Shown one piece after another: positions 1,277 to 49,465 of a stretch of 64,000 nt of DNA. The DNA is taken from the IMG/VR virus record IMGVR_UViG_3300047655_000013, positions 1,077-65,076 of that record. One strand, given 5' to 3'. This DNA is from a virus. Taxonomy: Duplodnaviria; Caudoviricetes. Numbering within the stretch: the stretch's first letter is position 1; each line of letters begins with the position of its first letter. The translations under genes and the position numbers were made by a program. Under the pieces are notes generated by a model that was not told the origin of the DNA, searched no databases, and worked only from the letters and a program-made list of their open reading frames with translations.

Positions 1277-1501
1277 ATGAACCTACACATGGTTGACTTA
1301 CGCACGATTCAGACGACCGCGCGCATCACCCAGGCCGAGCGCATGGAAGCGCAGATGCGCCACACGGTGGCCCGCAACGACGCCGAACGCAAACGCGCGA
1401 AAGAGTACAACGCGCATCGCGGACTCACGCCGATGGCGATTGGTCAGCACTATCTGCCCGCAAGCGTGGCTCGCGCTTACCTGCATGTGAAGGTGGCGTG
1501 A
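1277..1501 (+). CDS. hypothetical phage protein
   Basis: GAGGTG RBS; coupled to next gene. Confidence 0.55.
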   Translation: MNLHMVDLRTIQTTARITQAERMEAQMRHTVARNDAERKRAKEYNAHRGLTPMAIGQHYLPASVARAYLHVKVA

Positions 1502-1848
1502 TGAGCATCCTTCAAAAAGTCCCTGTCACCCGTTGCGAAGATGGCTATTGGAGCCATCCCGACCTCATCCACTTCTGGCACGTTGAAATGAACGATGCAG
1601 AGCATTGCACAAAAGAGCAATGGGCCGATCTGGAGCGCCGCGCAGGCATCAAGACGCAGATCATCTATCTCGAAAGTGAATCGTTGGAGCATCCCGCATA
1701 CGTTTCCTATTTCGATAACGGCAACACGGACATTTCGGAATGGGACCCTTCGCCACCGCCGGACTGGTGGCTCATTGACATATGTGACAACGAAGACGGG
1801 CCATTCGCAGTTTGGGCGACGCATACGAACGACGCAGAGGCATCGTGA
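1501..1848 (+). CDS. hypothetical acidic phage protein
   Basis: Coupled ORF; DGYWSHP...EDGP motifs typical of a phage hypothetical family. Confidence 0.7.
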   Translation: MSILQKVPVTRCEDGYWSHPDLIHFWHVEMNDAEHCTKEQWADLERRAGIKTQIIYLESESLEHPAYVSYFDNGNTDISEWDPSPPPDWWLIDICDNEDGPFAVWATHTNDAEAS

Positions 1849-32700: not shown

Positions 32701-34571
32701 TGGGCTGCGGCTGCGTTGGCTTGTACTGCGACTCGTGCGGAAGTGTTGTTCTGGATCGTGACCTTGGCGCCCTGCGTTTGGCCCTTGAGTAGCCTGGCGA
32801 TCTTGATGTAGTCAAGAGTTTCGGACGGAAGTCCTTTCTGCCAGTTCTGACCATTTGCATTGATGGACTTGTCGACTCTTCCTATCCCATAGTCATATGC
32901 GGCCAGGGCCTGCGCGATGTCGCCTTTGTAATGCTTCGACAGAAAGCCCATATAGGCGCCGCCGGCGTTGGCCTGATCACGAAAATTCCATCGATCACCG
33001 CCTTTCCCCCACTCCTTCCACGTCGCTCCGGTAAATTGCAAGTCGCCAATTGCCTGATCGCCGTTGCGCAGCACTGGCCCAACCAGATTCCTTCCTTCCG
33101 TAGATTCCTTTGCCCACATAGCCTCCAGCGTTCCAGCAGGAAGGCCGTTTTTTGCATCCATATCGCCAAGTATGGCGCGTGGATCGGAGGGCATATTCAG
33201 GAAGTGGCGTGTATAGCCAAGCGCCTTGTCTGCAGATGAGATGCCGCCGAAACCTCGCACTCTGCCGCGCGTTTCGCGCTGCACTTCGTCAGGATCAAGC
33301 CCCGGATTGACGTCGATGGCGTGCGGGCTAGAAGTCGACGGCCCAACATCAATACCAAGGAATTTCGCCGCCTTTCGCAAGGCCCCCGCTACGGCAGTTA
33401 CCAATCCGGCGAAGTCCTTCATGTCCTGCTGAAACTGACTCGAGCCAAGATACTTCGTAAAACCGTTGATGCCATCTTCCAGCGAGCTCAGATTAGCCGG
33501 CGTGAAAATCTCATCAATCAGCTTCATCGCGTCCTTGCCGATGACCTCCACGAAATGCTGGAGTGGCCCGGAAAGCGAAACCAGCTTGTTTTTCAGATCC
33601 GTCTCGATGGTGTTGCCTGCATCCTTGATCTGGCGCAGAAACCCATACCAGGCATCCGTGTTCTTGTCGCTGACGTTGAATCGTCCTTGGTCTGAGCCGT
33701 ATTGCGACGCCGCTCGCTGGAGTTCGGACAGAGGTGTATTCCCCAATTGCCGCATCATTGATAGCGAGAACCCAGCTTGAGAAAAACCGGTCGACTGCAG
33801 CATCTCCGCCGTGCGCATGTTTTCTGGTGTGTTGGACCACCAGTTATGCGCGCGGATAGCAAGTTGACCCGCAAGCTGACCCGGGTCTTCACTGGACACC
33901 TGGTTGATGCCCTGACCGGCCGCTCGAGCGAGCCATACGCGCCCTGCAAAGCTGTTCTGCGCGCCGGCGATCGAACCTAGAACACTGGGATCAATGTAGC
34001 GTTGACCAAAGTCCTGATTGAACGCTGTCAATTGCCCCGGCGACATACCCAATCCACGGGCGCTGCGCTGGGTATCCACCGCGGATGACGCGAGATCCTT
34101 CAGGCCAATGCCACCGAGCAATCCGCCGAGGCCGGCGAGTCCACCACCGAGAGCCCCCAGTTTTAGCAGCCACTTTCCCATGCCGAAGATCGAGGAAGCC
34201 AGTCCCTCGGCATTCTTCTTCATTGAAGAGAGGGCCAACGAGCCACGCTCAGATTCATCCGCAAAGCTTTTCTGTGCCTTGAGATTTTTCGACAGACTTT
34301 CAAATAGGGCGTTGTTGGCTGCCCCGGCTTTTCTGATTTCGCGCGCGATGATCTCGGACTGGGTTGCTGCGATAACAAGAAAATCTTTCGACGCCTTGGA
34401 TGCTTCGGCGAAATCGCCCATTTCGCTACCAGCGTCGCCGATCGTCTCTTCGACTTTCTTCCATTCAGCCGGCGCACTCTTCAGATGCTCGTGGTATTCC
34501 TGATAAAGATCAAGGAAGGCTTTGAACTGGGTATCATCGACTTGGACTTTGACGATCGACGTTGCTGCCAT
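32697..34571 (-). CDS. tape measure protein with C-terminal lytic transglycosylase domain
   Basis: Helical 624 aa; KES...AIGDLQF...ALAAY.YG SLT motifs. Confidence 0.85.
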   Translation of the reverse strand: MAATSIVKVQVDDTQFKAFLDLYQEYHEHLKSAPAEWKKVEETIGDAGSEMGDFAEASKASKDFLVIAATQSEIIAREIRKAGAANNALFESLSKNLKAQKSFADESERGSLALSSMKKNAEGLASSIFGMGKWLLKLGALGGGLAGLGGLLGGIGLKDLASSAVDTQRSARGLGMSPGQLTAFNQDFGQRYIDPSVLGSIAGAQNSFAGRVWLARAAGQGINQVSSEDPGQLAGQLAIRAHNWWSNTPENMRTAEMLQSTGFSQAGFSLSMMRQLGNTPLSELQRAASQYGSDQGRFNVSDKNTDAWYGFLRQIKDAGNTIETDLKNKLVSLSGPLQHFVEVIGKDAMKLIDEIFTPANLSSLEDGINGFTKYLGSSQFQQDMKDFAGLVTAVAGALRKAAKFLGIDVGPSTSSPHAIDVNPGLDPDEVQRETRGRVRGFGGISSADKALGYTRHFLNMPSDPRAILGDMDAKNGLPAGTLEAMWAKESTEGRNLVGPVLRNGDQAIGDLQFTGATWKEWGKGGDRWNFRDQANAGGAYMGFLSKHYKGDIAQALAAYDYGIGRVDKSINANGQNWQKGLPSETLDYIKIARLLKGQTQGAKVTIQNNTSARVAVQANAAAAQ

Positions 34572-34683
34572 TATTAGCCCCTCAAAGCTTCGATGATGTA
34601 TCTTTCGCGGTGTTCGAGCGCACTGCGAAACGGGAATTCATGCCGCTCCGCGAACTCGCGAAATCCGGCTGTCGCCACGTAAT

Positions 34684-35343
34684 TCAGGATGGAACCGATG
34701 ATGCCGCCTTGACCGCGGAAGTCGCGGCCACTGTCGAGCTCGGCAAGGAAGCGACCCACACCGACAAGGGAGAGGGCGTAGTCGACGCTTTCAGGAACGA
34801 AGCCGTGCTCTGTCCGATTCGTTGCCGATCCACCTTTTTCGCCATGGACCAATGGCAGCAGAAAAAAACAATAGCAGCCTCCACTTCTTCCCATTCTTCC
34901 GCGTCAATCTTGCCGCCTGAGATTGCGAGGTCCACGGGAAGCATTTCCCATCCAGCCGCACCCGGGCAAAGAATTGTCGTGAGTCGGCGCAACTCGGCAA
35001 AGAATGCTTTGACTTCATCATCCTTTGGATTGCCGCGATCATCCACGTTGCCACGGCTCTCGGCATCTCGCAGCCCTTCGTCACGAAGGGTCAATGCTGC
35101 GACGCGTGGACCTGCGGACATAAGATACTGGCGCCCCTTATTTTCGAGGGTGGCTTTCGTAGAAGCGAGCAGAGCGAAGTTCTGGTCGAACACCGCTTTG
35201 CTGATGGGCGTATGAAATGCGTGGATGCGCACGATGTTTTCGGCCACATCCTTTTCTTCGCCCGTCACTTTGTCTTTTTCCTTCCTGACCACGCGCTCCG
35301 TGACAACCGGAAAGATGACGTTAAAGCTTTCATCGACTTGCAT
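34684..35343 (-). CDS. tail assembly chaperone
   Basis: Between tube and tape measure; AGGGA RBS before ATG 35343. Confidence 0.7.
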   Translation of the reverse strand: MQVDESFNVIFPVVTERVVRKEKDKVTGEEKDVAENIVRIHAFHTPISKAVFDQNFALLASTKATLENKGRQYLMSAGPRVAALTLRDEGLRDAESRGNVDDRGNPKDDEVKAFFAELRRLTTILCPGAAGWEMLPVDLAISGGKIDAEEWEEVEAAIVFFCCHWSMAKKVDRQRIGQSTASFLKASTTPSPLSVWVASLPSSTVAATSAVKAASSVPS

Positions 35344-35373
35344 TCTCAATCCCTTTGAGATCCCTATGGAGGA

Positions 35374-35425
35374 GCTGCGGAGGCCGGTAGGGAGGCCGGT
35401 TTTCGAGAGCGACTCTATCCGCAGC
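35374..35425 (-). ncRNA. three-way-junction RNA motif, copy A
   Basis: P1 GCTGCGGA/TCCGCAGC, TA, P2, GAAAA, P3 with TCCCTA in loop. Confidence 0.6.
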
Positions 35426-35431
35426 AAATCA

Positions 35432-35878
35432 TCAGAACGACCAGAGTGCAGCGTTGATCGGATACGAGCCACGGAGGATCAATCGAACCACTGGATCGGT
35501 ACCGTCGAATGCGCCCGGGTCGATGCGGATAATCGACGCGTTCACCATGCTGGTGACCGGGAAAGTCGACGTATCGCTATGGACGTTCACCTGGCCGATG
35601 TAGGTTGCCTGCTGGCCCTGTGCGACCCAGTTTGCTGCAAGGGCCTGGGTGCGCAACAGATTCACCGTCACCTGCGCCATGATGTACGGCTCGGGCGAGT
35701 TGACGACGCCCGTACCGGTACCAATCTGACCGGTCCAGTCGCCTTCAAACTCGAGTCGGGCGAATCCTTTCGACATGTACGGAGCGGTGATATTGAGCGC
35801 CGTATTGCTCGGGATAACGATCGCAGTGAGGACGCGATTAAGGACGCCCTGCGCGATCTGAGGGTTTTGGATTGCCAT
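35432..35878 (-). CDS. tail tube protein
   Basis: 148 aa directly after sheath. Confidence 0.75.
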   Translation of the reverse strand: MAIQNPQIAQGVLNRVLTAIVIPSNTALNITAPYMSKGFARLEFEGDWTGQIGTGTGVVNSPEPYIMAQVTVNLLRTQALAANWVAQGQQATYIGQVNVHSDTSTFPVTSMVNASIIRIDPGAFDGTDPVVRLILRGSYPINAALWSF

Positions 35879-35887
35879 TTGTCGTCC

Positions 35888-37435
35888 TTATGCGAACTGC
35901 ACGGCGGCCAGCGCGAAGCCGATTACGAGAAAACCGTTCTGACCCACGACAGTGGCCGAAAAGCCCCTGTAAAGGCCGGCCTGATAGTCGTTGGGATTCG
36001 CCGTGGTATAGGCCGCGAACGGCGTTGCGTTAATCGTGATGCTTAGCGCACACTGGAACTGGACTGCACTGTTCGCGACGCCCTGCGCCACGGCCAGCAG
36101 GGAATTAATCCCATTCTGGTCATAGATCAACGGCGGGTTCTGGTTCGAACCATTGATGACGGCAGCGGCGAGAGCCTGCTGCGCCTGAATCTGGAACCAG
36201 TCGAGCCCATACCACCAGGCGGCCTGGGTGCCGTCCATGGTGGTGCCTTTCCAGATGCCGGCCTTGGAAATACCACCTTCCGACGTCGGATAGATGATGT
36301 TGCCATAACCCGTCAGGACGTTGTTGATGTTGGTCTGATTGCCTGAGATAGCCCACGGCGTGACGCCCGTCAGGTACCGATAAGACATCGGTCCAAGAGG
36401 GTTTGATGCCGAAGGATTGTTCACCAGCCATTGGTAGAACATCGCGCCTGCGTCGAATTCTTGAGACGTAGCCGTCGGCGCCGGCACGGTTGCATAAACC
36501 GATTTCAACGTCGCGTAGTTCGACAGATTCGCGACTGAGGTCGTCGCAAAGAAATATGTTTTGCTGGTCGGATTGGCGTACTGGCCCGCGAGGATATTCA
36601 TCGCAGAAGCAAGATTTGCAGTTGCTGCGGCCCCAACGCCACCACCACCGCTAAAGGTGACCGTCGGCGCCGCAGTATAGCCGGAGCCCGGATTGGTGAT
36701 CGTCACGGCAACGACAGCACCATTCTGGATAATGGCCGTGCCTGCGGCGCCCGTTCCGCCACCACCACCACTAAACGCAACCGTCGGCGCCACCGTAAAA
36801 CCATTGCCACCGTTGTTGATGACAACCGACCCGACCTCATCCTTCGAGTAATCCCAGGCAGCCGGGGTGAGATACCCGTAGAAAACTCCCGGGTTATTCG
36901 TGATCCACGTGTTCAGCGCGGCAATCTGCGCGTCCACGCCGACAATATCGCCCAGTTCAAGAACGTAGACGCCGACGGCCGTTCCTTGCGCGAAAAACGA
37001 TGACGCCGGGTAGGTGATCGACGATGCGCCCGAGATCGTGAAGTAACCGGGCGTCGTTTCGGTGCCCGGGCTCGACGCGAGCGCATACGTGAACGTGGTC
37101 GAGGTCGCAACGGTCGCGATGTACGTGCCGTTATATGCACTCGGCACGGCACCAGAAATGGTCGTCGTGAACTGCGTGCCGATCGTCGGCAGAATACCGC
37201 TTGAGACCGTCGCCGTGACGGTGCTTGACGTCCACGCTAGCGAAGTAATCGCATACGAGGTTGCCGAGATAGAATTAATTGCGGACAGGTTGCCGCAAAA
37301 CTGATAAGCGCCGGGCGCAAGAGTCGTGCCACCCACCGAGACGATCGCGCCGCTTTGCTGAAGCTGGGACGGTACCGGCGCCGTGGTGACGACCGCGGTG
37401 AGATTGACGATCTGAGGGGTGATCGTTTGTGCCAT
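35888..37435 (-). CDS. tail sheath protein
   Basis: 515 aa; WWYGLDWFQI, L.YDQ.GI motifs; synteny. Confidence 0.8.
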   Translation of the reverse strand: MAQTITPQIVNLTAVVTTAPVPSQLQQSGAIVSVGGTTLAPGAYQFCGNLSAINSISATSYAITSLAWTSSTVTATVSSGILPTIGTQFTTTISGAVPSAYNGTYIATVATSTTFTYALASSPGTETTPGYFTISGASSITYPASSFFAQGTAVGVYVLELGDIVGVDAQIAALNTWITNNPGVFYGYLTPAAWDYSKDEVGSVVINNGGNGFTVAPTVAFSGGGGGTGAAGTAIIQNGAVVAVTITNPGSGYTAAPTVTFSGGGGVGAAATANLASAMNILAGQYANPTSKTYFFATTSVANLSNYATLKSVYATVPAPTATSQEFDAGAMFYQWLVNNPSASNPLGPMSYRYLTGVTPWAISGNQTNINNVLTGYGNIIYPTSEGGISKAGIWKGTTMDGTQAAWWYGLDWFQIQAQQALAAAVINGSNQNPPLIYDQNGINSLLAVAQGVANSAVQFQCALSITINATPFAAYTTANPNDYQAGLYRGFSATVVGQNGFLVIGFALAAVQFA

Positions 37436-37499
37436 ACAGGCTCCAGAAAAGCGAAACCCCGCTCAATGGCGGGGCTAGGAAGAAGGGCGGCGAGACGCG

Positions 37500-37784
37500 T
37501 TACGGATTGAAAGTCAGTGCTACGCCAAGATTTACGAGAGCGTTCGATGAGGGGGCGGTGCTCCACGTAAATGTCACGGACGTGCCACTGAGAACGGCAG
37601 TCGGAGTAACTCCCTGATCAACCGATACTTGGTAAATGCCGTTCGGAATCTTGTTGCGGATTTTGTTATCTGCAGCGATTTGGCTGTAGTAATCGACAGT
37701 CGTAGTCGTGGAAGTGCCATCGCCAACCAAACCGACGTTATAGCCATACTGGCTACCGCTGCCATTGGTAAGTTGAATTGCCAC
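37500..37784 (-). CDS. hypothetical, possibly virion protein
   Basis: Beta-rich 94 aa; GGAGGA RBS. Confidence 0.6.
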   Translation of the reverse strand: MAIQLTNGSGSQYGYNVGLVGDGTSTTTTVDYYSQIAADNKIRNKIPNGIYQVSVDQGVTPTAVLSGTSVTFTWSTAPSSNALVNLGVALTFNP

Positions 37785-37796
37785 AAATCCTCCCGA

Positions 37797-38099
37797 TTAC
37801 GACCACGAAACAGCAATGGTGTAGCCGGTCGGCGGCACCACGACAATTCCGTTGGCCGTAGGCGCGGCATTGAAATTGATCGGCGCACCAACTGCCGCAG
37901 CGATCACACCGACCTGATTGGCTACGGTATTGCCGCTCGTCGAGGTCGCGTCATAGACGGCGCCCGCCGTGCTGCCGGTGCCGGACACAACCGAAACTGT
38001 GAACACGCGCCCGGGCGACGATTTGATAACCGTGGCTGTCGTGATATCAAGCGTCGTCGTGGTGCCGCCGGGAATTGGGGCGAGAGGATATTGGGGCAT
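37797..38099 (-). CDS. hypothetical virion protein
   Basis: Beta-rich; GGAG RBS. Confidence 0.65.
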   Translation of the reverse strand: MPQYPLAPIPGGTTTTLDITTATVIKSSPGRVFTVSVVSGTGSTAGAVYDATSTSGNTVANQVGVIAAAVGAPINFNAAPTANGIVVVPPTGYTIAVSWS

Positions 38100-38113
38100 T
38101 CAAAACTCCAAAG

Positions 38114-38136
38114 AAAAAAGCCCGCTCAAGGCGGGC
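38114..38136 (-). terminator. intrinsic terminator
   Basis: GCCCGC stem followed by T6 on - strand. Confidence 0.65.
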
Positions 38137-38162
38137 AGGGGCGTCATGCGGGAATGCCCCGT

Positions 38163-39122
38163 CTAGACGGTTATGGAAGAGAATCCAGCAGACAGAATGA
38201 GTCGACGCGCAACAGCATCTGCGGCTGACTGGTAGTACCAGGCGACGATGTTGATCGTCTTCTTCATGGCAATTGCGCCGATTTCGACCTGAGTCCGCTT
38301 TTCATCGCGAGGAACTGGCGTATTGCCGAAACCGAAGTTGCCGGAATTGACGGAATAGTCGATAAGCATGGCCAGATACTGGATGGCCATCTGGTTCGTG
38401 AACCCGTAGAGGATCAGTTTCACGTTATCTTTCGCGAGTTGCGATGCGGACATCTGTTGCAAGGCGGTCAGGGGACTCGGATTTCCGGGCCATTGATAAA
38501 TCGGAAACGATGGCGCTTCGGTAAGATCGGGTTCGACGTGCGCCACTACATAGGGCGGCACAACGTTGTCTGGCACGAGATATGACGCGTACACCGGAAT
38601 CGTCGTTGCCCCGAATGTCGTTTGCGCGAGCCAGATTGGAAGGCTGTTCGAAACGATCGGTTCTGGCGGCAGATCGGCTATGCTGCCGACCAACTGGGCA
38701 GACATGGCCGGGTAGACCGCAAATCCGCGGTAGTGCCAGAGACCTGCCTGCTGATAGTTCGCGCCCGTTTCCGAGAATGCGACCTGCAGGGTTGTTCCAT
38801 CAACCTGCCACGTCCCAACCCACATGGTCCCGGGTGCGATCGCGTTGAGTTGCGACACTTCTCCGGTTGCAGTGAAAACCATCTTGTTCGCGGCGATGGT
38901 CTGATCTTCTTCCTGCTTGCGGTCAGTCAGGATATGCAGAGAACCTGTGAACTGCTGTACGGTGCCGCTCGCTACCCAGAACACATAGCCATCTGTCGGC
39001 AGCGTGGACTTTGTATATTGCTGGAACTGAACCGTCTGGTTGTTCGAAATCTGCGCGACGCCAGCGGCCAGCGATGCGGCAAGTTGCGACGGCGCGCCGG
39101 CGGCTTCGGAGATCAGGCTCAT
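38163..39122 (-). CDS. neck/tail completion protein
   Basis: Synteny between head and tail genes. Confidence 0.6.
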   Translation of the reverse strand: MSLISEAAGAPSQLAASLAAGVAQISNNQTVQFQQYTKSTLPTDGYVFWVASGTVQQFTGSLHILTDRKQEEDQTIAANKMVFTATGEVSQLNAIAPGTMWVGTWQVDGTTLQVAFSETGANYQQAGLWHYRGFAVYPAMSAQLVGSIADLPPEPIVSNSLPIWLAQTTFGATTIPVYASYLVPDNVVPPYVVAHVEPDLTEAPSFPIYQWPGNPSPLTALQQMSASQLAKDNVKLILYGFTNQMAIQYLAMLIDYSVNSGNFGFGNTPVPRDEKRTQVEIGAIAMKKTINIVAWYYQSAADAVARRLILSAGFSSITV

Positions 39123-39595
39123 GATTCGCTATTGGAAAGCCACGCACGGAAAGACGCGCTGTAAAGGCCGGTATCCATAAACTCCGAACGCGCCTGCCGT
39201 TTCTTGTTCGGCTGCTTTTTGCGCAGCGTCGAGCCCTGTTCCGCAGCGTCAACCGTCTGGCCGCTGACGCTCTTCCACTCGCGCGAGTCTAGATAGTCCC
39301 TGAACGCTTCCTCAATCCGGCCGTTGACACTTTGACCTTCGATTACGCGATCGCCTAGCTGAGTTGTCACGTCCTGACTGCCGAAAGCTATGACCGGTTT
39401 GCCTTGTGCAAGAGATTCAATTTCGCCCGACATCGCATCAGCAAGGAAATCGCCTATGTCATCTTCGTGAAGCTCCAGAAACGTCCGGATGACGTGGTAT
39501 TCCTTCTCAAGATAACCAGCCACTTCTCCAGTCGTCGTTGCGCCATCGCCATCTGAATAGGCCACATCAACAACGCCGAGATTTAGCGTAACCAT
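39119..39595 (-). CDS. neck protein
   Basis: C-terminal FMDTGLY..S motif. Confidence 0.65.
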   Translation of the reverse strand: MVTLNLGVVDVAYSDGDGATTTGEVAGYLEKEYHVIRTFLELHEDDIGDFLADAMSGEIESLAQGKPVIAFGSQDVTTQLGDRVIEGQSVNGRIEEAFRDYLDSREWKSVSGQTVDAAEQGSTLRKKQPNKKRQARSEFMDTGLYSASFRAWLSNSES

Positions 39596-40245
39596 TAGCT
39601 AACGCCCACAATGTTCGGCCCGTAACTCTGCGCATACGCCAGATATTCGCGACCCCACGGCGTATTCAGCAAATCCAGCCCTTGCATGGTGAGGCCTTTG
39701 ATGAAATCTGCAGTCACCAAGGTTTCGGACGTCGCCTGATCAGCCGAGGCAGCTACTGGCCCCGCCTGGAACGTCAGTAAATTGAATGCTTTTCGTTGGG
39801 CGGAGAAAAAGGTCTGCCCGGACTGGTCCTGCGCGACCTTGAGCAACTGGTGCATGCCAAGGTTGTACACAGCCAGGACATACATAAGTGGCGGCATACA
39901 TGCCGGCGGTATCAGTGCAACGCCGATCGCCACACTGAACGCCCATGCCAGATAGGGCGAATATGTTGCCGCTGTCGCGACTTCAACTGCGGCGGTAGGG
40001 GCGGGCGCAACCGTACCGCTATTCGTGCCACCGTTCCATGTCGCGATGTAAGCACTAATGCCCAGCCCGACAATGGCCATCCCGGGTGCGACTGTGCCCG
40101 CCGAAGCTGTTGCTGTCAGGTTGCCAGATGTATCGATTCCGACCGTCGTCAATGAACCGTTCGGGAGATCGGCCGAGGGCACGCCCTGATTCAACACAAA
40201 CGCGTTGAAGTCCGGCAAATTCGGGATGGTCGGATTCGAGAACAT
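39595..40245 (-). CDS. head-tail adaptor protein
   Basis: AVYNLG.H.L...TPWGREYL motif. Confidence 0.7.
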   Translation of the reverse strand: MFSNPTIPNLPDFNAFVLNQGVPSADLPNGSLTTVGIDTSGNLTATASAGTVAPGMAIVGLGISAYIATWNGGTNSGTVAPAPTAAVEVATAATYSPYLAWAFSVAIGVALIPPACMPPLMYVLAVYNLGMHQLLKVAQDQSGQTFFSAQRKAFNLLTFQAGPVAASADQATSETLVTADFIKGLTMQGLDLLNTPWGREYLAYAQSYGPNIVGVS

Positions 40246-40508
40246 CAGGGCACCGAGATGACTTGACCGCCTAGCGCGATGTAGTCAGCGAGATCGAGTG
40301 CGGCCGGCAGCGCCGCGATATATGGCATGTTCTGAGCCAAGGCAATCTGCCGCGGCGCATGCGACCAGACGGCATGCCCGCGAGAAATGCAGATCTTCAT
40401 GCCCTTCGACATAAGTGATCTGACTTCTTCGATATGCGTCATAGGCGCGATGCTTGTGGCCGCATCAACTGCGGCACGCGCCTCTTCAGTAAGTCGTATG
40501 GCCTTCAT
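40245..40508 (-). CDS. hypothetical protein
   Basis: Coupled ORF in late operon. Confidence 0.5.
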   Translation of the reverse strand: MKAIRLTEEARAAVDAATSIAPMTHIEEVRSLMSKGMKICISRGHAVWSHAPRQIALAQNMPYIAALPAALDLADYIALGGQVISVP

Positions 40509-40510
40509 GG

Positions 40511-41029
40511 TCAGATAGCAAGTTGCGCGTTTTCGGGGGCGGCCGAATCTACCGTTACGCTCATCGTTACTTCATTTCCAGTTGGCTTATCGCGCGGGCC
40601 AATGTCTTGCTGGACTTCGACCTGTGTCACTTTCGCGAGGCGTTTGCGCCGATCGCCGGGCAGGCGATTAGCCTGATCCATCGCGAGCGCGCCACGCTGT
40701 GCCTCTACCGCCGAAACTTTTTCCTGCGCCTCGACGCGCGCTTCGTGACCGCTACGGATCTGCGTCTCGGTAGTCGCCTTGTCGACGCTGTACATAAAGC
40801 CAGAGAAGTTCTCAAGCCGGCCGTTTGTTTCGCTTGATCGGCGGAACCCGGCGGTTTCAAGCTGCTTGATAAAGTACTCGACAGTCGTATCAGTCCAACC
40901 TTCGCCAATCTTTTCCTGACGACCAGAATGCACATCCAGTTCGTGGATACGGTTGGACTCGGGCAGGCGATAGTTGAATTTCAGGCGTTGTTTCGAACCG
41001 TTCGCAACGTAAATAATGGTCATGTTCAT
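40511..41029 (-). CDS. hypothetical protein after major capsid
   Basis: AGGGG RBS; synteny. Confidence 0.65.
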   Translation of the reverse strand: MNMTIIYVANGSKQRLKFNYRLPESNRIHELDVHSGRQEKIGEGWTDTTVEYFIKQLETAGFRRSSETNGRLENFSGFMYSVDKATTETQIRSGHEARVEAQEKVSAVEAQRGALAMDQANRLPGDRRKRLAKVTQVEVQQDIGPRDKPTGNEVTMSVTVDSAAPENAQLAI

Positions 41030-41040
41030 CCCCTAAAATG

Positions 41041-41061
41041 AAAAAACCGCCCATGGACGGC
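41041..41061 (-). terminator. intrinsic terminator after major capsid gene
   Basis: GCCGTCC-ATG-GGCGGTTTTTT on - strand. Confidence 0.65.
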
Positions 41062-41080
41062 TGCTTCCCTGAAAGTTGAG

Positions 41081-41135
41081 CCCGCACCAGGCCGGACAGG
41101 GACCGGCTTTTCGGATGCGCAATCCTAGGTGCGGG
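41081..41135 (-). ncRNA. three-way-junction RNA motif, copy B
   Basis: P1 CCCGCACC/GGTGCGGG, TA, P2, GAAAA, P3 with TCCCTG in loop. Confidence 0.6.
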
Positions 41136-41144
41136 GGTTAAGCG

Positions 41145-42170
41145 TCAATGCGGAATCGACAAAATGTAGAGGCCCGCGCCGCGGACATTCCAGCCGCTGC
41201 TAATCCGGTTCTCGTACACCGTGGTAATCGCACCGTCTTCCGTCGGAGTCGGGATTTCAGCCGGGGCAGCCATCGCTGCGTACTGGACGTTCACAGCCTT
41301 CATCGACGGCGAGACTTCACCGAAGGCGTTGGTGTTGATGCCCGGGATATCCGGCACTTCTACTTCCGGAATCGTCAGGATCACCGCGTCGGCACCGCCT
41401 GCGCCCTTTCCGATCAACGTGTCGTCGAAGAACCACACGAGATCATCGCCGGCCGCTGCCACGTTCTCCTGAGCGACGTTCGCCGTGGTCGACGTGCCGG
41501 CACCGGGGCGTTGATACGCAGTAACCTGAACGATGTTCGCGATCTGGGCTTGCAGAAAGATTCGCTGCGGGCTGATGACGACGATCTTGTTGTGGATCTT
41601 GCCGCCCGACTGAAACATGCCGATCTTCAGGTTCACGATCTGCGTGAGAAGCCACAGGGCCATCGCGCCGTTGTCGTATGTCGAGAACGTCGTGTTGCCG
41701 TACGGGTCAGGCGGCAACGTCACTTGCGTGGCACCCGGAGCGTTCAACAGACCTTCTCCGTTCGACGGCTGATACCCATACAACAACGCCGTACGGTATT
41801 GCTGGTAGTGACCCTGGCGTGCGGCAAGGCTTTGGGCGGCCGGCAAGCTGACGTTGTAGTTCGCTGCGGCAGCGGTGTCGTGACGGTCCCATACCGACCG
41901 CGTACGCACGAGGTAGGTCGCGGTGCTGAACTGTTCGCCGACAAGCGTTGCCGAGGGCAGAAAGTTCGGAGCGGCGCCAGAAGCCTGCGCCTCCGTGCGC
42001 AGATCGAGCGAGTTCACGTAGACGTACAGGTCGTCCAGGCTGATCTTGACGCGCGGTTTGCCGCCCTGCAGAGCTTCGAATGCACCCGATGCCTGCGCAT
42101 AGGTGACGATGAGGTCGGGCTCGGCGAAATGCGGGTTGATCCGCGCGCGGGCCGGAAACAGATTTGCCAT
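41145..42170 (-). CDS. major capsid protein
   Basis: 341 aa; LYG...EGLLN motif; after protease and decoration genes, followed by terminator. Confidence 0.85.
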   Translation of the reverse strand: MANLFPARARINPHFAEPDLIVTYAQASGAFEALQGGKPRVKISLDDLYVYVNSLDLRTEAQASGAAPNFLPSATLVGEQFSTATYLVRTRSVWDRHDTAAAANYNVSLPAAQSLAARQGHYQQYRTALLYGYQPSNGEGLLNAPGATQVTLPPDPYGNTTFSTYDNGAMALWLLTQIVNLKIGMFQSGGKIHNKIVVISPQRIFLQAQIANIVQVTAYQRPGAGTSTTANVAQENVAAAGDDLVWFFDDTLIGKGAGGADAVILTIPEVEVPDIPGINTNAFGEVSPSMKAVNVQYAAMAAPAEIPTPTEDGAITTVYENRISSGWNVRGAGLYILSIPH

Positions 42171-42182
42171 GTCTTGGGCTCC

Positions 42183-42788
42183 TTAGAGTTGGATCATTGC
42201 TGCATTACCCGTCGTCCAGGTCAATGCCCCGGTGCCCGAGTTGTAGCTGATGGTCTTGCTGGTGGAATTCAACGAAAGAATCTTCGTCGTCGCCGGCAGT
42301 GCAAACGCACCGGAAGTACCCGATGCGGTGAGTTGCTGGAGTGCCGGATCCCAGTACAGCGTCTGGTTGATCGCGCCGCTGTCGAGCGTGGCGACGATGC
42401 TGCCGAGAACGCCTACCGCGATACGGATGTTCGAGCCGAACCGGTAGTAGTTGATCGTCATGCCCGCGACGGACTGCTGTACGGTATTGCCCGGCACGAT
42501 GATCATGTTGTGCGCCTGGTCGAACACGGTGAAACCAGTCACGTTGCCAGCGGCGCTTGCCAGTACGAGCGAATTCCCCAGTTGGTTGGCGTTCACCGTC
42601 GCGACTTCTTCGGTGATCGCCATGCCGCCCCAGACGGGTTGTGTGACGCTCGATGCGACAACGCCGGACGTCAGCCACATGCGCGAAGAGGTATCGTCGA
42701 AGGTGGCCCCCTGGACGTACCCTTCCGTAGATTGGAGGAAGGTATTGGACGGCGAAGTCGTCAACTGCGGATTGAAAGAGACAGTCAT
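42183..42788 (-). CDS. head decoration/cement protein
   Basis: GYVQG, VWGG, YRFGS..RI motifs; AGGAG RBS. Confidence 0.7.
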   Translation of the reverse strand: MTVSFNPQLTTSPSNTFLQSTEGYVQGATFDDTSSRMWLTSGVVASSVTQPVWGGMAITEEVATVNANQLGNSLVLASAAGNVTGFTVFDQAHNMIIVPGNTVQQSVAGMTINYYRFGSNIRIAVGVLGSIVATLDSGAINQTLYWDPALQQLTASGTSGAFALPATTKILSLNSTSKTISYNSGTGALTWTTGNAAMIQL

Positions 42789-42799
42789 CTATCGACTCC

Positions 42800-44689
42800 T
42801 TAGTGTTTCTGACGGGGATCGAGCAGGCGAACGCTCTGACCTTGGTGTTTGAAGAAGCCGAGCCATCCGTCCATGTCGCCATCCCACTCAGTGATCTGGC
42901 GACCGGCTGCGTCGTTGTACCGGCGCGGAGTGAGCTTGCCGGCGGTGACGGCTGCGGGGCTGCGTGCGAAGGCTTGCGCATCCATGCGGATCTGTTCTTC
43001 GACGGTATCGAACACAACGCCGTCGATTGAATCCAGGCGGATTCCCTTGAACTTGTCGCTGTGCTTCTGAAACTTTGCAGCCAGTCGCTGGCGATAGGCG
43101 ATCGGGCTTTCGCCGTGGAGCGGTGCCGGTACGCTGTCGCCGAACATCTGTGCGACCGAATCCCAGCGGGCTTGGGCTGCGCTGAGTTGATCGCGATCGG
43201 TGACCGAGAGGGGAGTCGTGAGCGAAGTGAGTCGCGCATTCATTTCCTCGATCTGCTTCTTCATGCCCGCGTTTTCGCTGCGCAGTTGCGAGTCGGAACG
43301 AACGCGCGCATCTTCTGCGTCCTTGCGCTCTTTTGCTTCTTTCTCGACACGTTCCTTTTCTTCGGAATCGAGGCGAGCCGAATCGGCGCGACGTTGCGCT
43401 TCTTCCGAATCACTCCGCTCTTTGGCTTCGCGTGCGGCCTTGGCTTCCGCCGTTTCCTCAACAGCGCCAGCGGCCTCGGCAACCTTCAACTCCGAGGCGA
43501 CCGAATCGGCGGCCAGCGCAGCAGTCGGCATTGCATCGCCACCCTTGTTTTCGAGTGCATCGAGCCGCGCGCCCATTGCCGAGCATGCTTCGTCGAATCG
43601 CTTGCCAAGGGCATCAGCCCAGGCCGGAACCTGCTCTTGCGTTTCATCCATCTCTGTTTCTCCAGTGTTAATTCCGCTGGGCTCCCCCCCTTTGTCCCAC
43701 ACGCCCACCGGGCATATCGCCAGGTGATCGAGGTAGGATGGGTTGCCTTCGATAAGAACCGTCTTCCCATCAACTTCCAGGAATTCGGCTGAGCCCGCGT
43801 CGCGGAAAATCACCGCGGGACTAGTCGACTCGTGCGTCGTCAACATCAGTTGAACGGCGTCCGTGTCGATGATTCGTGCTACACCGCGGACTTCATCGCC
43901 CGCGATATAGGGATAGAAAATCGAGCCGACGTTGCGCTCGCGGTATTCTTTGGTATCAAGCAGACCAGGCGGGTGTTCGAAGATGACCGGCAGTCCGTTG
44001 CAGCGCTCGCGGAACTCTTCCGTCAGGAAGGTTTTGGGAGGACGGTAGACATACTCGTCGAGGGCCTTGCGGTAGCTCGTACCGGTGCCAGTGATGCGCA
44101 GATCAAAAAACCATGCGCCTTCGTATTTCTGGGGAGACAGCAGATAGCCCGCGGCCATCCGCTTCGCGATGTCGAGTTCATTGCCCGTGACGAGCTCGAT
44201 CGTCCGCGCTACCGGCGCGAGCATGTTCTCGGGCAGCGCATCAGGTGCGGCCCATTGCCATGCGGTGTGCTCGTCGTTTAGCTTCGGCTCGAACGGCTCA
44301 GGAACGTCCTGCAGGAAGCAGGTGTATTCGCCATTACCGCCGGGAATCGGGTTGCGGCGCGCCGGCCAGCGAGCGCCCTCAGGGCACACGCCGATCTCTT
44401 CGACACATTCACGCTCGGCAGCAGCTTCGGGCGTTTCTTCGCCTTCGGCGTGACCGCCAGGTTGCTCCCATTCACCGGTATCGCTGCGACGGACCAAAAG
44501 ATAGCGAGGGCCGGGAGCGCGGAAGAGTATGCCGGCGCAGATGATGGGTGCGGTTTCGGCATCCTTGCGCGCGTTACCTGCTTCATGCTCGGCGACCGCG
44601 ATTGCCTGATTCTCAGGATGCCCTGCATGACGAAGTTCGGCAATATTGGCGCTGACCGCCTCTTGCGACGAACCTTGTTCTAGGGGCAT
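42800..44689 (-). CDS. prohead protease/scaffold (DUF2213-like) with N-terminal Nudix hydrolase domain
   Basis: PGGHAEGEETPEAAAERECVEEIG Nudix box; YRPP..F, PVIFEHP, DHLAIC; coiled C-terminus. Confidence 0.8.
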   Translation of the reverse strand: MPLEQGSSQEAVSANIAELRHAGHPENQAIAVAEHEAGNARKDAETAPIICAGILFRAPGPRYLLVRRSDTGEWEQPGGHAEGEETPEAAAERECVEEIGVCPEGARWPARRNPIPGGNGEYTCFLQDVPEPFEPKLNDEHTAWQWAAPDALPENMLAPVARTIELVTGNELDIAKRMAAGYLLSPQKYEGAWFFDLRITGTGTSYRKALDEYVYRPPKTFLTEEFRERCNGLPVIFEHPPGLLDTKEYRERNVGSIFYPYIAGDEVRGVARIIDTDAVQLMLTTHESTSPAVIFRDAGSAEFLEVDGKTVLIEGNPSYLDHLAICPVGVWDKGGEPSGINTGETEMDETQEQVPAWADALGKRFDEACSAMGARLDALENKGGDAMPTAALAADSVASELKVAEAAGAVEETAEAKAAREAKERSDSEEAQRRADSARLDSEEKERVEKEAKERKDAEDARVRSDSQLRSENAGMKKQIEEMNARLTSLTTPLSVTDRDQLSAAQARWDSVAQMFGDSVPAPLHGESPIAYRQRLAAKFQKHSDKFKGIRLDSIDGVVFDTVEEQIRMDAQAFARSPAAVTAGKLTPRRYNDAAGRQITEWDGDMDGWLGFFKHQGQSVRLLDPRQKH

Positions 44690-44705
44690 GCGATGTACCA
44701 AAAGA

Positions 44706-49389: not shown

Positions 49390-49465
49390 TGGAGCGAACT
49401 GTCGGATTCGAACCGACGACCGAGTGCTTGGAAGGCACTCGCTCTGCCATCTGAGCTAAGTCCGC
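49390..49465 (-). tRNA. tRNA-Gly (anticodon TCC)
   Basis: 76-nt cloverleaf: GCGGACT/AGTTCGC acceptor, CTTCCAA anticodon loop, GTTCGAATC T-loop, U73, encoded CCA. Confidence 0.95.

Follow-up and report, generated by a model that had tools for sequence, protein, structure and literature searches.

We analysed a 64,000-nt stretch of DNA (the window), which makes up most of the 65,076-base IMG/VR virus record IMGVR_UViG_3300047655_000013, a record rated complete by CheckV. Its minus strand carries two copies of one structured RNA, copy B after the major capsid gene and copy A after the tail tube gene, and both are genuine members of the Rfam family int-alpA (RF02996). Judging from the sequences that surround this family in viral and bacterial genomes, we propose, with a rough probability of 0.55, that int-alpA, including both window copies, is a portable cis-acting translation-initiation leader for the following gene, and that it is neither a small RNA (sRNA) nor a 3' appendage of the preceding gene.

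The Rfam scan of the window at gathering score returned three matches, one tRNA and two to RF02996. Copy B scored 62.5 bits (E 1.4e-10) and copy A 45.8 bits (E 2.8e-06; both E values over 64 kb), compared with a gathering score of 35.8 bits, and both copies aligned over the full model (positions 1-71 of 71). None of 14 control genomes had a match to this family. The elements had been noticed in a sequence-only reading, which could not assign them to a named family and held that a strong Rfam match would remove their novelty. Given these scores, the structure is not novel and no new RNA class is at hand; the window copies are new members of a catalogued family, in a context that its name does not reflect. 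They share with the model the three stems, the UA and GAAAA junctions, the CCU-rich P3 loop and an AGGG about 10 nt past P1, and the model consensus already holds the CCuU loop word and the terminal AgGG. The name int-alpA refers to a position between integrase and alpA genes, whereas the copies in the window come after the genes for capsid and tube, in the late region of a myovirus. Such a genomic context is a tendency that lies outside the RF02996 model; the occurrence in Proteobacteria and in mobile elements is shared by the window copies.

The family was found by comparative genomics (Weinberg et al. 2017, NAR 45:10811, PMC5737381). The word 'alpA' does not occur in the main text of that paper; the motif is described in its supplements. 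Elsewhere in the literature searched, an E. coli strain survey only lists the int-alpA family as present or absent, and another use of the words 'int-alpA' denotes a gene order. Within the literature searched, to which the discoverers' supplements do not belong, neither a stated function of int-alpA nor the accession RF02996 was found.

Apart from int-alpA, scans of either copy at E values up to 10 returned no noteworthy family. Not among the matches were tRNA (RF00005), RNase P substrates, the catalogued ribozyme families, the plasmid pseudoknot families (PK-repZ and PK-repBA among them) and the C4 phage antisense RNA, which the sequence-only reading had singled out for comparison. Riboswitches of the preQ1-II and SAM-II type had no Rfam match on either copy. 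ARAGORN called neither copy, its only call being a tRNA-Gly at 49390-49465. The hammerhead core CUGANGA was absent from both copies, in which J1/2 consists of UA only.

Each copy is a three-way junction of P1, P2 and P3 whose P3 loop pairs with a tail beyond P1 in a 6-bp pseudoknot (Table 1); across the family, this tail is an SD-like (Shine-Dalgarno-like) word located 7-10 nt past P1. Folded alone, both cores adopted the three-way junction as the minimum-energy structure, at -21.9 kcal/mol for copy A (z -2.93) and -26.2 kcal/mol for copy B (z -2.70), with 1/200 shuffles as stable in either case. When flanks were included, z was only -0.57 and -0.61 for copies A and B, so that folding energy by itself is insufficient to establish the structure. 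Covariation was examined in 62 distinct members aligned to our own model, R1. Pairing was found in 94.2% of the cells, compared with 67.2% in shuffles and 32-47% with slid partners, and double-sided changes occurred in 17/17 junction base pairs, which 0/500 shuffles reached; this alignment was fitted to the structure, which favours the structure somewhat. The UA junction was invariant in 54/54 aligned sequences, G11 and one A of the GAAA(A) junction were nearly invariant (at least 90%), and all stems varied. Copies A and B are unlikely to be a recent duplication of one another because all three of their stems differ. The P1 of copy A is common to family members in other contexts (L063, L072).

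The pseudoknot changed in step among relatives. The loop and tail words read UCCCUG/CAGGGA, UCCCUUG/CAAGGGA, UCCCUA/UAGGGA, CCCCUUA/UAAGGGG and UCCCGG/CCGGGA, and GUCCA/UGGAC is a further compensatory pair in the family. Since the tail could not be aligned by column, we compared pairing with the own tail and with the tails of other members. For 27 distinct loops, the P3 loop bound its own tail at -8.4 kcal/mol, compared with -5.8 +/- 0.3 kcal/mol for permuted partners, a difference reached by 0/5000 permutations. The letters quoted in the sequence-only reading were located on the minus strand at their coordinates, and its account of the stems, the matching junctions, the pseudoknot and the compensatory change is borne out by the homologues. 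The published drawing of int-alpA reportedly also marks a pseudoknot.

The P3 loop is complementary not only to the tail but also to the Shine-Dalgarno (SD) sequence of the next gene. The loop resembles an anti-SD sequence, as seen in CCUCCCUA, UCCCUGU and CACCUUCA. Pairing of the loop with its own SD region amounted to -8.0 kcal/mol, compared with -6.2 +/- 0.35 kcal/mol for permuted partners (0/5000). In addition, the tail word recurred in the SD region: the mean longest shared word was 5.0, compared with 4.31 +/- 0.12 after permutation (0/5000). Examples are UGAAGG, present twice in several members, CACAGGG, twice in relative L022, and AGGGAU, twice in copy A. A control of the same design for the linker and the tail gave -2.19 vs -2.38, which 4246/5000 permutations reached, with no covariation. 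An alternative hairpin of linker and tail was therefore rejected. This null result also indicates that shared ancestry alone does not yield such signals in this data set.

The next question was to which of its neighbours the motif belongs. The likely host is Paraburkholderia, whose genomes contain prophages with capsid genes that are 91-94% identical. Matches at E up to 0.001 were collected from a sample of 150 genomes for the bacterial family of the host and from one of 151 genomes for the class. At least 27/150 and at least 13/151 genomes, respectively, had a match; these counts are floors, as Infernal was run with stricter filters and 30 candidates were scored per genome. An open reading frame (ORF) of at least 100 aa began 8-32 nt 3' of the match in 46 of the 52 bacterial members, whereas 315 of 2080 random positions in the same loci (15%) had such an ORF. 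The exceptions included two B-type prophage copies. The same downstream arrangement was seen in 15/16 further full-length matches in viral contigs, which were 22 stretches selected with a pattern that only some family members fit. Moreover, 43 of 50 distinct segments between tail and start formed a hairpin with GG in its loop (mean z -1.86, mononucleotide shuffles). The stem of this SD hairpin covaried among relatives of copy A (UCUCAA/UUGAGA, CUCAA/UUGAG, CUGAU/AUCAG).

The genes on either side were diverse. P4-type integrases made up 10/25 of the co-directional upstream ORFs in the family sample and 3/10 in the viral contigs, and such contexts explain the family name. Other upstream genes encoded a Mu-F head protein, endolysin, sheath, capsid, terminase, repressors and HNH endonucleases. 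At most nine of 33 immediately downstream ORFs had any Pfam match and 0/33 belonged to the AlpA family; those that could be labelled were Rha-like and KilA-N regulators and HNH/endonuclease VII genes. The module is portable, as evidenced by the 46 downstream proteins, which fell into 33 clusters, and by six leaders that share one 12-nt SD hairpin core, of whose pairs 13/15 precede unrelated proteins. In the viral contigs L112 and L098, the motif itself leads an HNH or endonuclease VII gene. In the AT-rich members L081 and L093, a perfect TATAAT ends 6-7 nt 5' of P1, and the transcript there probably begins at the P1 base; in GC-rich members, the place of this TATAAT just 5' of the motif is often taken by a stop codon or a terminator.

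The clearest single case for the motif staying with the downstream gene is L022 (IMG/VR relative G015). Here the order is capsid gene, terminator, HNH/endonuclease VII-like ORF, terminator, motif, SD and a homologue of the ~170-aa gene that follows copy B in the window. The insertion region spans 495-1580 of L022, with the HNH/endonuclease VII-like gene at 517-1410 between two terminator-like hairpins. The motif is thus parted from the capsid gene, yet it stands directly 5' of the downstream gene. In addition, one and the same 7-mer, complementary to the P3 loop, occurs in L022 as the tail and again as the SD.

The distribution of the motif among relatives of the phage was uneven. The Rfam motif was found in 0/5 cultured relatives with a capsid identity of 43-67% (Shewanella phage QDWS, Pantoea phage PdC23, Escherichia phage Rac-SA53, Klebsiella phage Chronis and Yersinia phage YenM 29.18), and when a consensus-like member and copy A were compared by BLAST with 50,697 records of cultured phages, nothing matched. 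It was present in 10/15 IMG/VR relatives, to which R1 added L022 as the eleventh. Every contig with 87-97% capsid identity that extends over the B position had a copy there; at the A position, six lineages had a copy and six had none. L040, a prophage of Paraburkholderia caffeinilytica, carries a B-type copy only, and L041 carries both. Where copy A was absent, the tube gene and the next gene abutted with a 2-nt gap (L040, L022) or overlapped (L018, L019, L043); L008 had no model match at the A position. The close relative L039 (IMG/VR G005) carries a third int-alpA copy (1380-1620, minus strand), which immediately follows a terminator and leads into a gene for a Rha-like regulator; in bacterial genomes, leaders nearly identical to it stand before KilA-N or Rha genes (L066, L071, L072). 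In Rac-SA53, an Rfam match to sRNA-Xcc1 (78.1 bits; L005:13915-13998, minus strand) adjoins an antirepressor gene.

The order of the proposed module is the junction, the pseudoknot tail, a short hairpin with the true SD in its loop, and the start codon some 20 nt on. Since the P3 loop has two complementary partners, the tail and the real SD, the pairings loop:tail and loop:SD likely compete and thereby control the access of the 30S subunit to the start of the next gene. The tail would serve as an SD-like decoy: a loop that holds the tail would leave the SD free, or the loop would hold the SD itself. As an autonomous fold, the module could insulate the downstream start from the sequence context and from the ribosome traffic of a heavily translated upstream gene. 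From this arrangement we infer an action on translation, which may go up or down and may or may not respond to a trigger. In this phage, the module sits at two junctions, each between a high-copy gene (capsid or tube) and a gene of unknown function that lies before connector or tail genes. At copy B, transcription termination and the leader may act in series; L022 has the reverse order, in which the terminator comes first. At these two window junctions, a drop in expression past the capsid and tube genes is possible as a local consequence and would make biological sense. The sequence-only reading had proposed a cis-acting RNA that either lowers downstream expression or protects the upstream mRNA. 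The first part, action on downstream expression, agrees with the spacing of the downstream ORFs, and protection of the upstream mRNA is not favoured.

A more far-reaching version of this leader, which we put forward tentatively as a less probable one, is that int-alpA constitutes a new, self-contained class of portable translational switches of Proteobacteria mobile elements in which the junction reads a host cue. A rigid three-way junction would hold the anti-SD-like loop, which would switch between the decoy SD and the true SD in its hairpin loop. The module would then be a plug-in ribosome-binding part carried by phages, by integrative islands and by free-standing genes for endonucleases or anti-repressors; in the present phage it would define the step-down that follows the capsid and tube genes.

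Several points weigh against a translation-initiation leader. The SD-likeness of both the tail and the SD surely contributes to the loop:SD signal, without any switch. The permutation tests remove shared ancestry incompletely, although the linker control argues against a pure ancestry artefact, and they fall short of proving a switch. The ORFs were called by simple rules in GC-rich DNA, so that the downstream spacing is a heuristic result. Copy B departs from the family plan: the terminator lies between its tail and the SD (AGGGGA, 41034-41029), the SD is outside a hairpin loop, and the start codon comes 37-43 nt after the Rfam match. This terminator was kept in 10/10 B-type copies (alignment A1). 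Rfam assigns RF02996 the type 'Gene; sRNA', from which our census, with a motif joined to the next start codon, differs in pointing to a cis-acting leader. Finally, a stop codon lay within 15 nt 5' of P1 in 11 of the 25 members with a co-directional upstream ORF within ~100 nt, so that the motif may have a role at the end of the cistron that precedes it.

Such a role would make the element a 3'-end device of the upstream high-copy gene, which blocks 3' exonucleases or attenuates read-through and sets virion stoichiometry; the capsid and tube mRNA segments would outlast or outnumber the segments that follow. Besides the close stop codons of the census, the window itself fits this idea. The TGA of the 148-aa gene (35434-35432, followed by a second in-frame TGA) is 6 nt 5' of P1 in copy A and the TGA of the 341-aa gene (41147-41145) is 9 nt 5' of P1 in copy B, in line with the distance of about 10 nt reported in the sequence-only reading, and the terminator right after copy B would place this copy at the 3' end of terminated capsid transcripts. 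In L022, however, two terminators and an inserted gene part the motif from the capsid gene, and it stays before the downstream gene. Moreover, the upstream genes are heterogeneous and include integrases, which are not high-copy genes, and a 3' stabiliser needs neither the conserved tail nor the SD hairpin nor the start spacing. We consider this explanation unlikely, and the earlier tie of the element to high-copy virion genes is not favoured. The 0 sigma-70-like promoters in 34500-42500, compared with 3.9 expected in shuffles (a sigma-70 consensus scan only), make the copies most simply intercistronic. This bears on the proposal of a trans-acting sRNA, made from its own promoter or by processing, whose CCU-rich P3 loop pairs with the SD regions of other mRNAs. 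The Rfam type, the anti-SD-like loop, the TATAAT of L081 and L093 and the discrete 3' end that copy B and its terminator would yield speak for it. We nevertheless regard it as highly improbable: an ORF follows about 20 nt 3' in 46/52 members with no terminator in between save in B-type copies, the loop is taken up in cis by the covarying tail, no promoter-like site lies near either window copy, and in L022, L066, L072 and L039 the motif comes directly after a terminator U run, with no room for a promoter.

The leader could also be a sensor, i.e. a riboswitch-like or protein-operator version in which a junction pocket for a small ligand or a conserved host protein sets the pseudoknot and downstream translation. 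The invariant UA and the nearly invariant G11 and A of the junctions, among stems that all vary, would suit such a pocket, and the SD-like tail with the SD hairpin has the layout of an expression platform. The downstream genes are unrelated, however, and suggest no metabolite. CsrA, the obvious binder of a loop GGA, was found (as PF02599) in 0/2 motif-carrying Burkholderiaceae genomes and not in the phage record, and GGA is missing from many SD loops, which read GAAGGU or GAGGGC. A CsrA/RsmA-regulated leader was thus rejected for Burkholderiaceae; PF02599 was found in two other class members. A sensor of any kind seems improbable to us. Least probable of all is an RNA-processing signal, a tRNA-like or self-cleaving element that would cut the polycistronic transcript between two genes. 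The intercistronic position and the compact three-way junction agree with it, and the 5' half (P1, UA and the GCUC...GAGC of many members) loosely resembles tRNA positions 8-13 and 22-25. The searches for tRNA, RNase P-substrate and ribozyme families, ARAGORN and the hammerhead core speak against it, and so does the gap of 1-2 nt between P3 and P1, which is unlike a T-arm/acceptor stack. A stimulator of read-through or frameshifting was rejected, given the tandem in-frame stops 5' of copy A, single-base indels among B-type copies and the fact that integrases share the arrangement.

A translation-initiation leader of this kind can be compared with known systems. In the activator pseudoknots of IncI/IncB plasmids (PK-repZ, PK-repBA), a hairpin loop likewise pairs with a word just 5' of the SD of the next cistron, in an intercistronic position and a mobile-element setting. 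Those pseudoknots lack a three-way junction, an antisense RNA and a leader peptide control them, and the word with which their loop pairs does not resemble an SD. The preQ1-II and SAM-II riboswitches resemble int-alpA in that an SD-like purine tract takes part in a pseudoknot, unpaired letters of the junction are conserved and the start codon follows within ~20 nt. In int-alpA, however, the pseudoknot partner is a decoy 5' of the real SD, and no common function links the downstream genes. Intercistronic stem-loops and partial terminators, such as REP elements and the terminators behind phage capsid genes, also stand directly after a high-copy gene and give differential operon expression. They are simple hairpins tied to the upstream 3' end, in contrast to int-alpA, whose covarying junction and pseudoknot move together with the start of the next gene; in copy B, a real terminator accompanies the motif. 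The gain is a testable function for an orphan Rfam family. A switch, if true, would explain context-independent or tunable translation of accessory and structural genes from phages and islands inside foreign transcripts, and would provide a compact natural insulator or regulator part. For this phage, the copies mark two places in the late region at which expression probably changes sharply from one gene to the next.

Table 1. Coordinates of the two int-alpA copies, their parts and the flanking genes in the window.
Feature	Position	Strand	Basis or remark
Copy A, int-alpA motif	35361..35425	-	Rfam RF02996 45.8 bits at 35362-35425; own model R1 47.0 bits
Copy A P1	35425-35418 / 35381-35374	-	window sequence
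Copy A UA junction	35417-35416	-	window sequence
Copy A P2	35415-35405	-	window sequence
Copy A GAAAA junction	35404-35400	-	window sequence
Copy A P3, loop CCUCCCUA	35399-35384	-	window sequence
Copy A pseudoknot tail UAGGGA	35366-35361	-	7-nt linker after P1; complementary to P3 loop
Small hairpin UCUCAA-AGGGA-UUGAGA, SD AGGGA (35354-35350) in loop	35344..35360	-	fold; directly 5' of ATG 35343-35341
Copy B, int-alpA motif	41066..41135	-	Rfam RF02996 62.5 bits at 41067-41135; R1 66.8 bits
Copy B P1	41135-41128 / 41088-41081	-	window sequence
Copy B UA junction	41127-41126	-	window sequence
Copy B P2	41125-41113	-	window sequence
Copy B GAAAA junction	41112-41108	-	window sequence
Copy B P3, loop UCCCUGU	41107-41091	-	window sequence
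Copy B pseudoknot tail CAGGGA	41071-41066	-	9-nt linker after P1
Intrinsic-terminator-like hairpin and U run	41039..41062	-	stem 41062-41045, then T run; between copy B tail and next SD
341-aa major capsid protein, upstream of copy B	41145..42170	-	phrog_264 'major head protein', E 3.5e-08
~170-aa gene downstream of copy B, function unknown	40511..41029	-	profile match, phrog_6737
148-aa tail tube protein, upstream of copy A, tandem stops TGATGA	35432..35878	-	position and predicted fold
219-aa gene downstream of copy A, function unknown	34684..35343	-	phrog_11810; homologues share the same start Met

On the minus strand, the late genes run from portal (phrog_146) through a head morphogenesis protein, a NUDIX-containing 633-aa protein, a 201-aa protein and the 341-aa capsid protein to copy B, and then through five small genes, the tail sheath gene (phrog_205) and the 148-aa gene to copy A, the 219-aa gene and a 624-aa gene whose product carries a lytic transglycosylase domain. 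The sequence-only reading had labelled the genes before the two copies as major capsid and tail tube, and both labels were upheld. The 341-aa protein has, besides its profile match, a 45% identical homologue in PdC23 that is annotated as major capsid protein. The 148-aa gene comes after the sheath gene, and the AlphaFold model of its product (pLDDT 70) resembled the solved tail tubes of Sf14, Bas63 and Pam3 with a TM of ~0.57-0.59. The start of the ~170-aa gene is likely the second ATG, at 41023, given homologues that begin MT(K/I)IY. The 219-aa protein may be a tail assembly chaperone, judged by its position between the tube gene and the tape-measure-like 624-aa gene; its fold search against the PDB gave no credible match (best probability 0.41, TM <0.26). 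When the four flanking proteins were searched by sequence against the PDB, no match had an E value below 0.5.

Several minor features were seen in the same record. A 106-aa ORF (34574-34894, minus strand) overlaps the end of the 219-aa gene in another frame, just 5' of the tape-measure-like gene. The region just before the tape-measure gene is the usual place of tail chaperone frameshift products. Within the late region, intrinsic-terminator-like hairpins also occur at 38136-38120, before a 100-aa gene, and at 37476-37455, just before the sheath gene (both minus strand); the late genes may read through several terminators. The tRNA-Gly called by ARAGORN (anticodon TCC, minus strand) lies inside the viral record and could be a phage-borne tRNA or a marker of an attachment site or prophage boundary. 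The 633-aa ORF of the head module (42800-44701, minus strand) combines a NUDIX hydrolase domain (residues 56-164) with a large conserved part (phrog_6216); it had weak portal and protease-like matches and is annotated as NUDIX hydrolase in relatives. Finally, the tube genes were compared in the relatives L008, L012, L014, L022, L040 and L041. Tube proteins were just 45-80% identical to that of the window in relatives with 87-97% identical capsid proteins and, as judged by these identities, the head and tail modules are mosaic.

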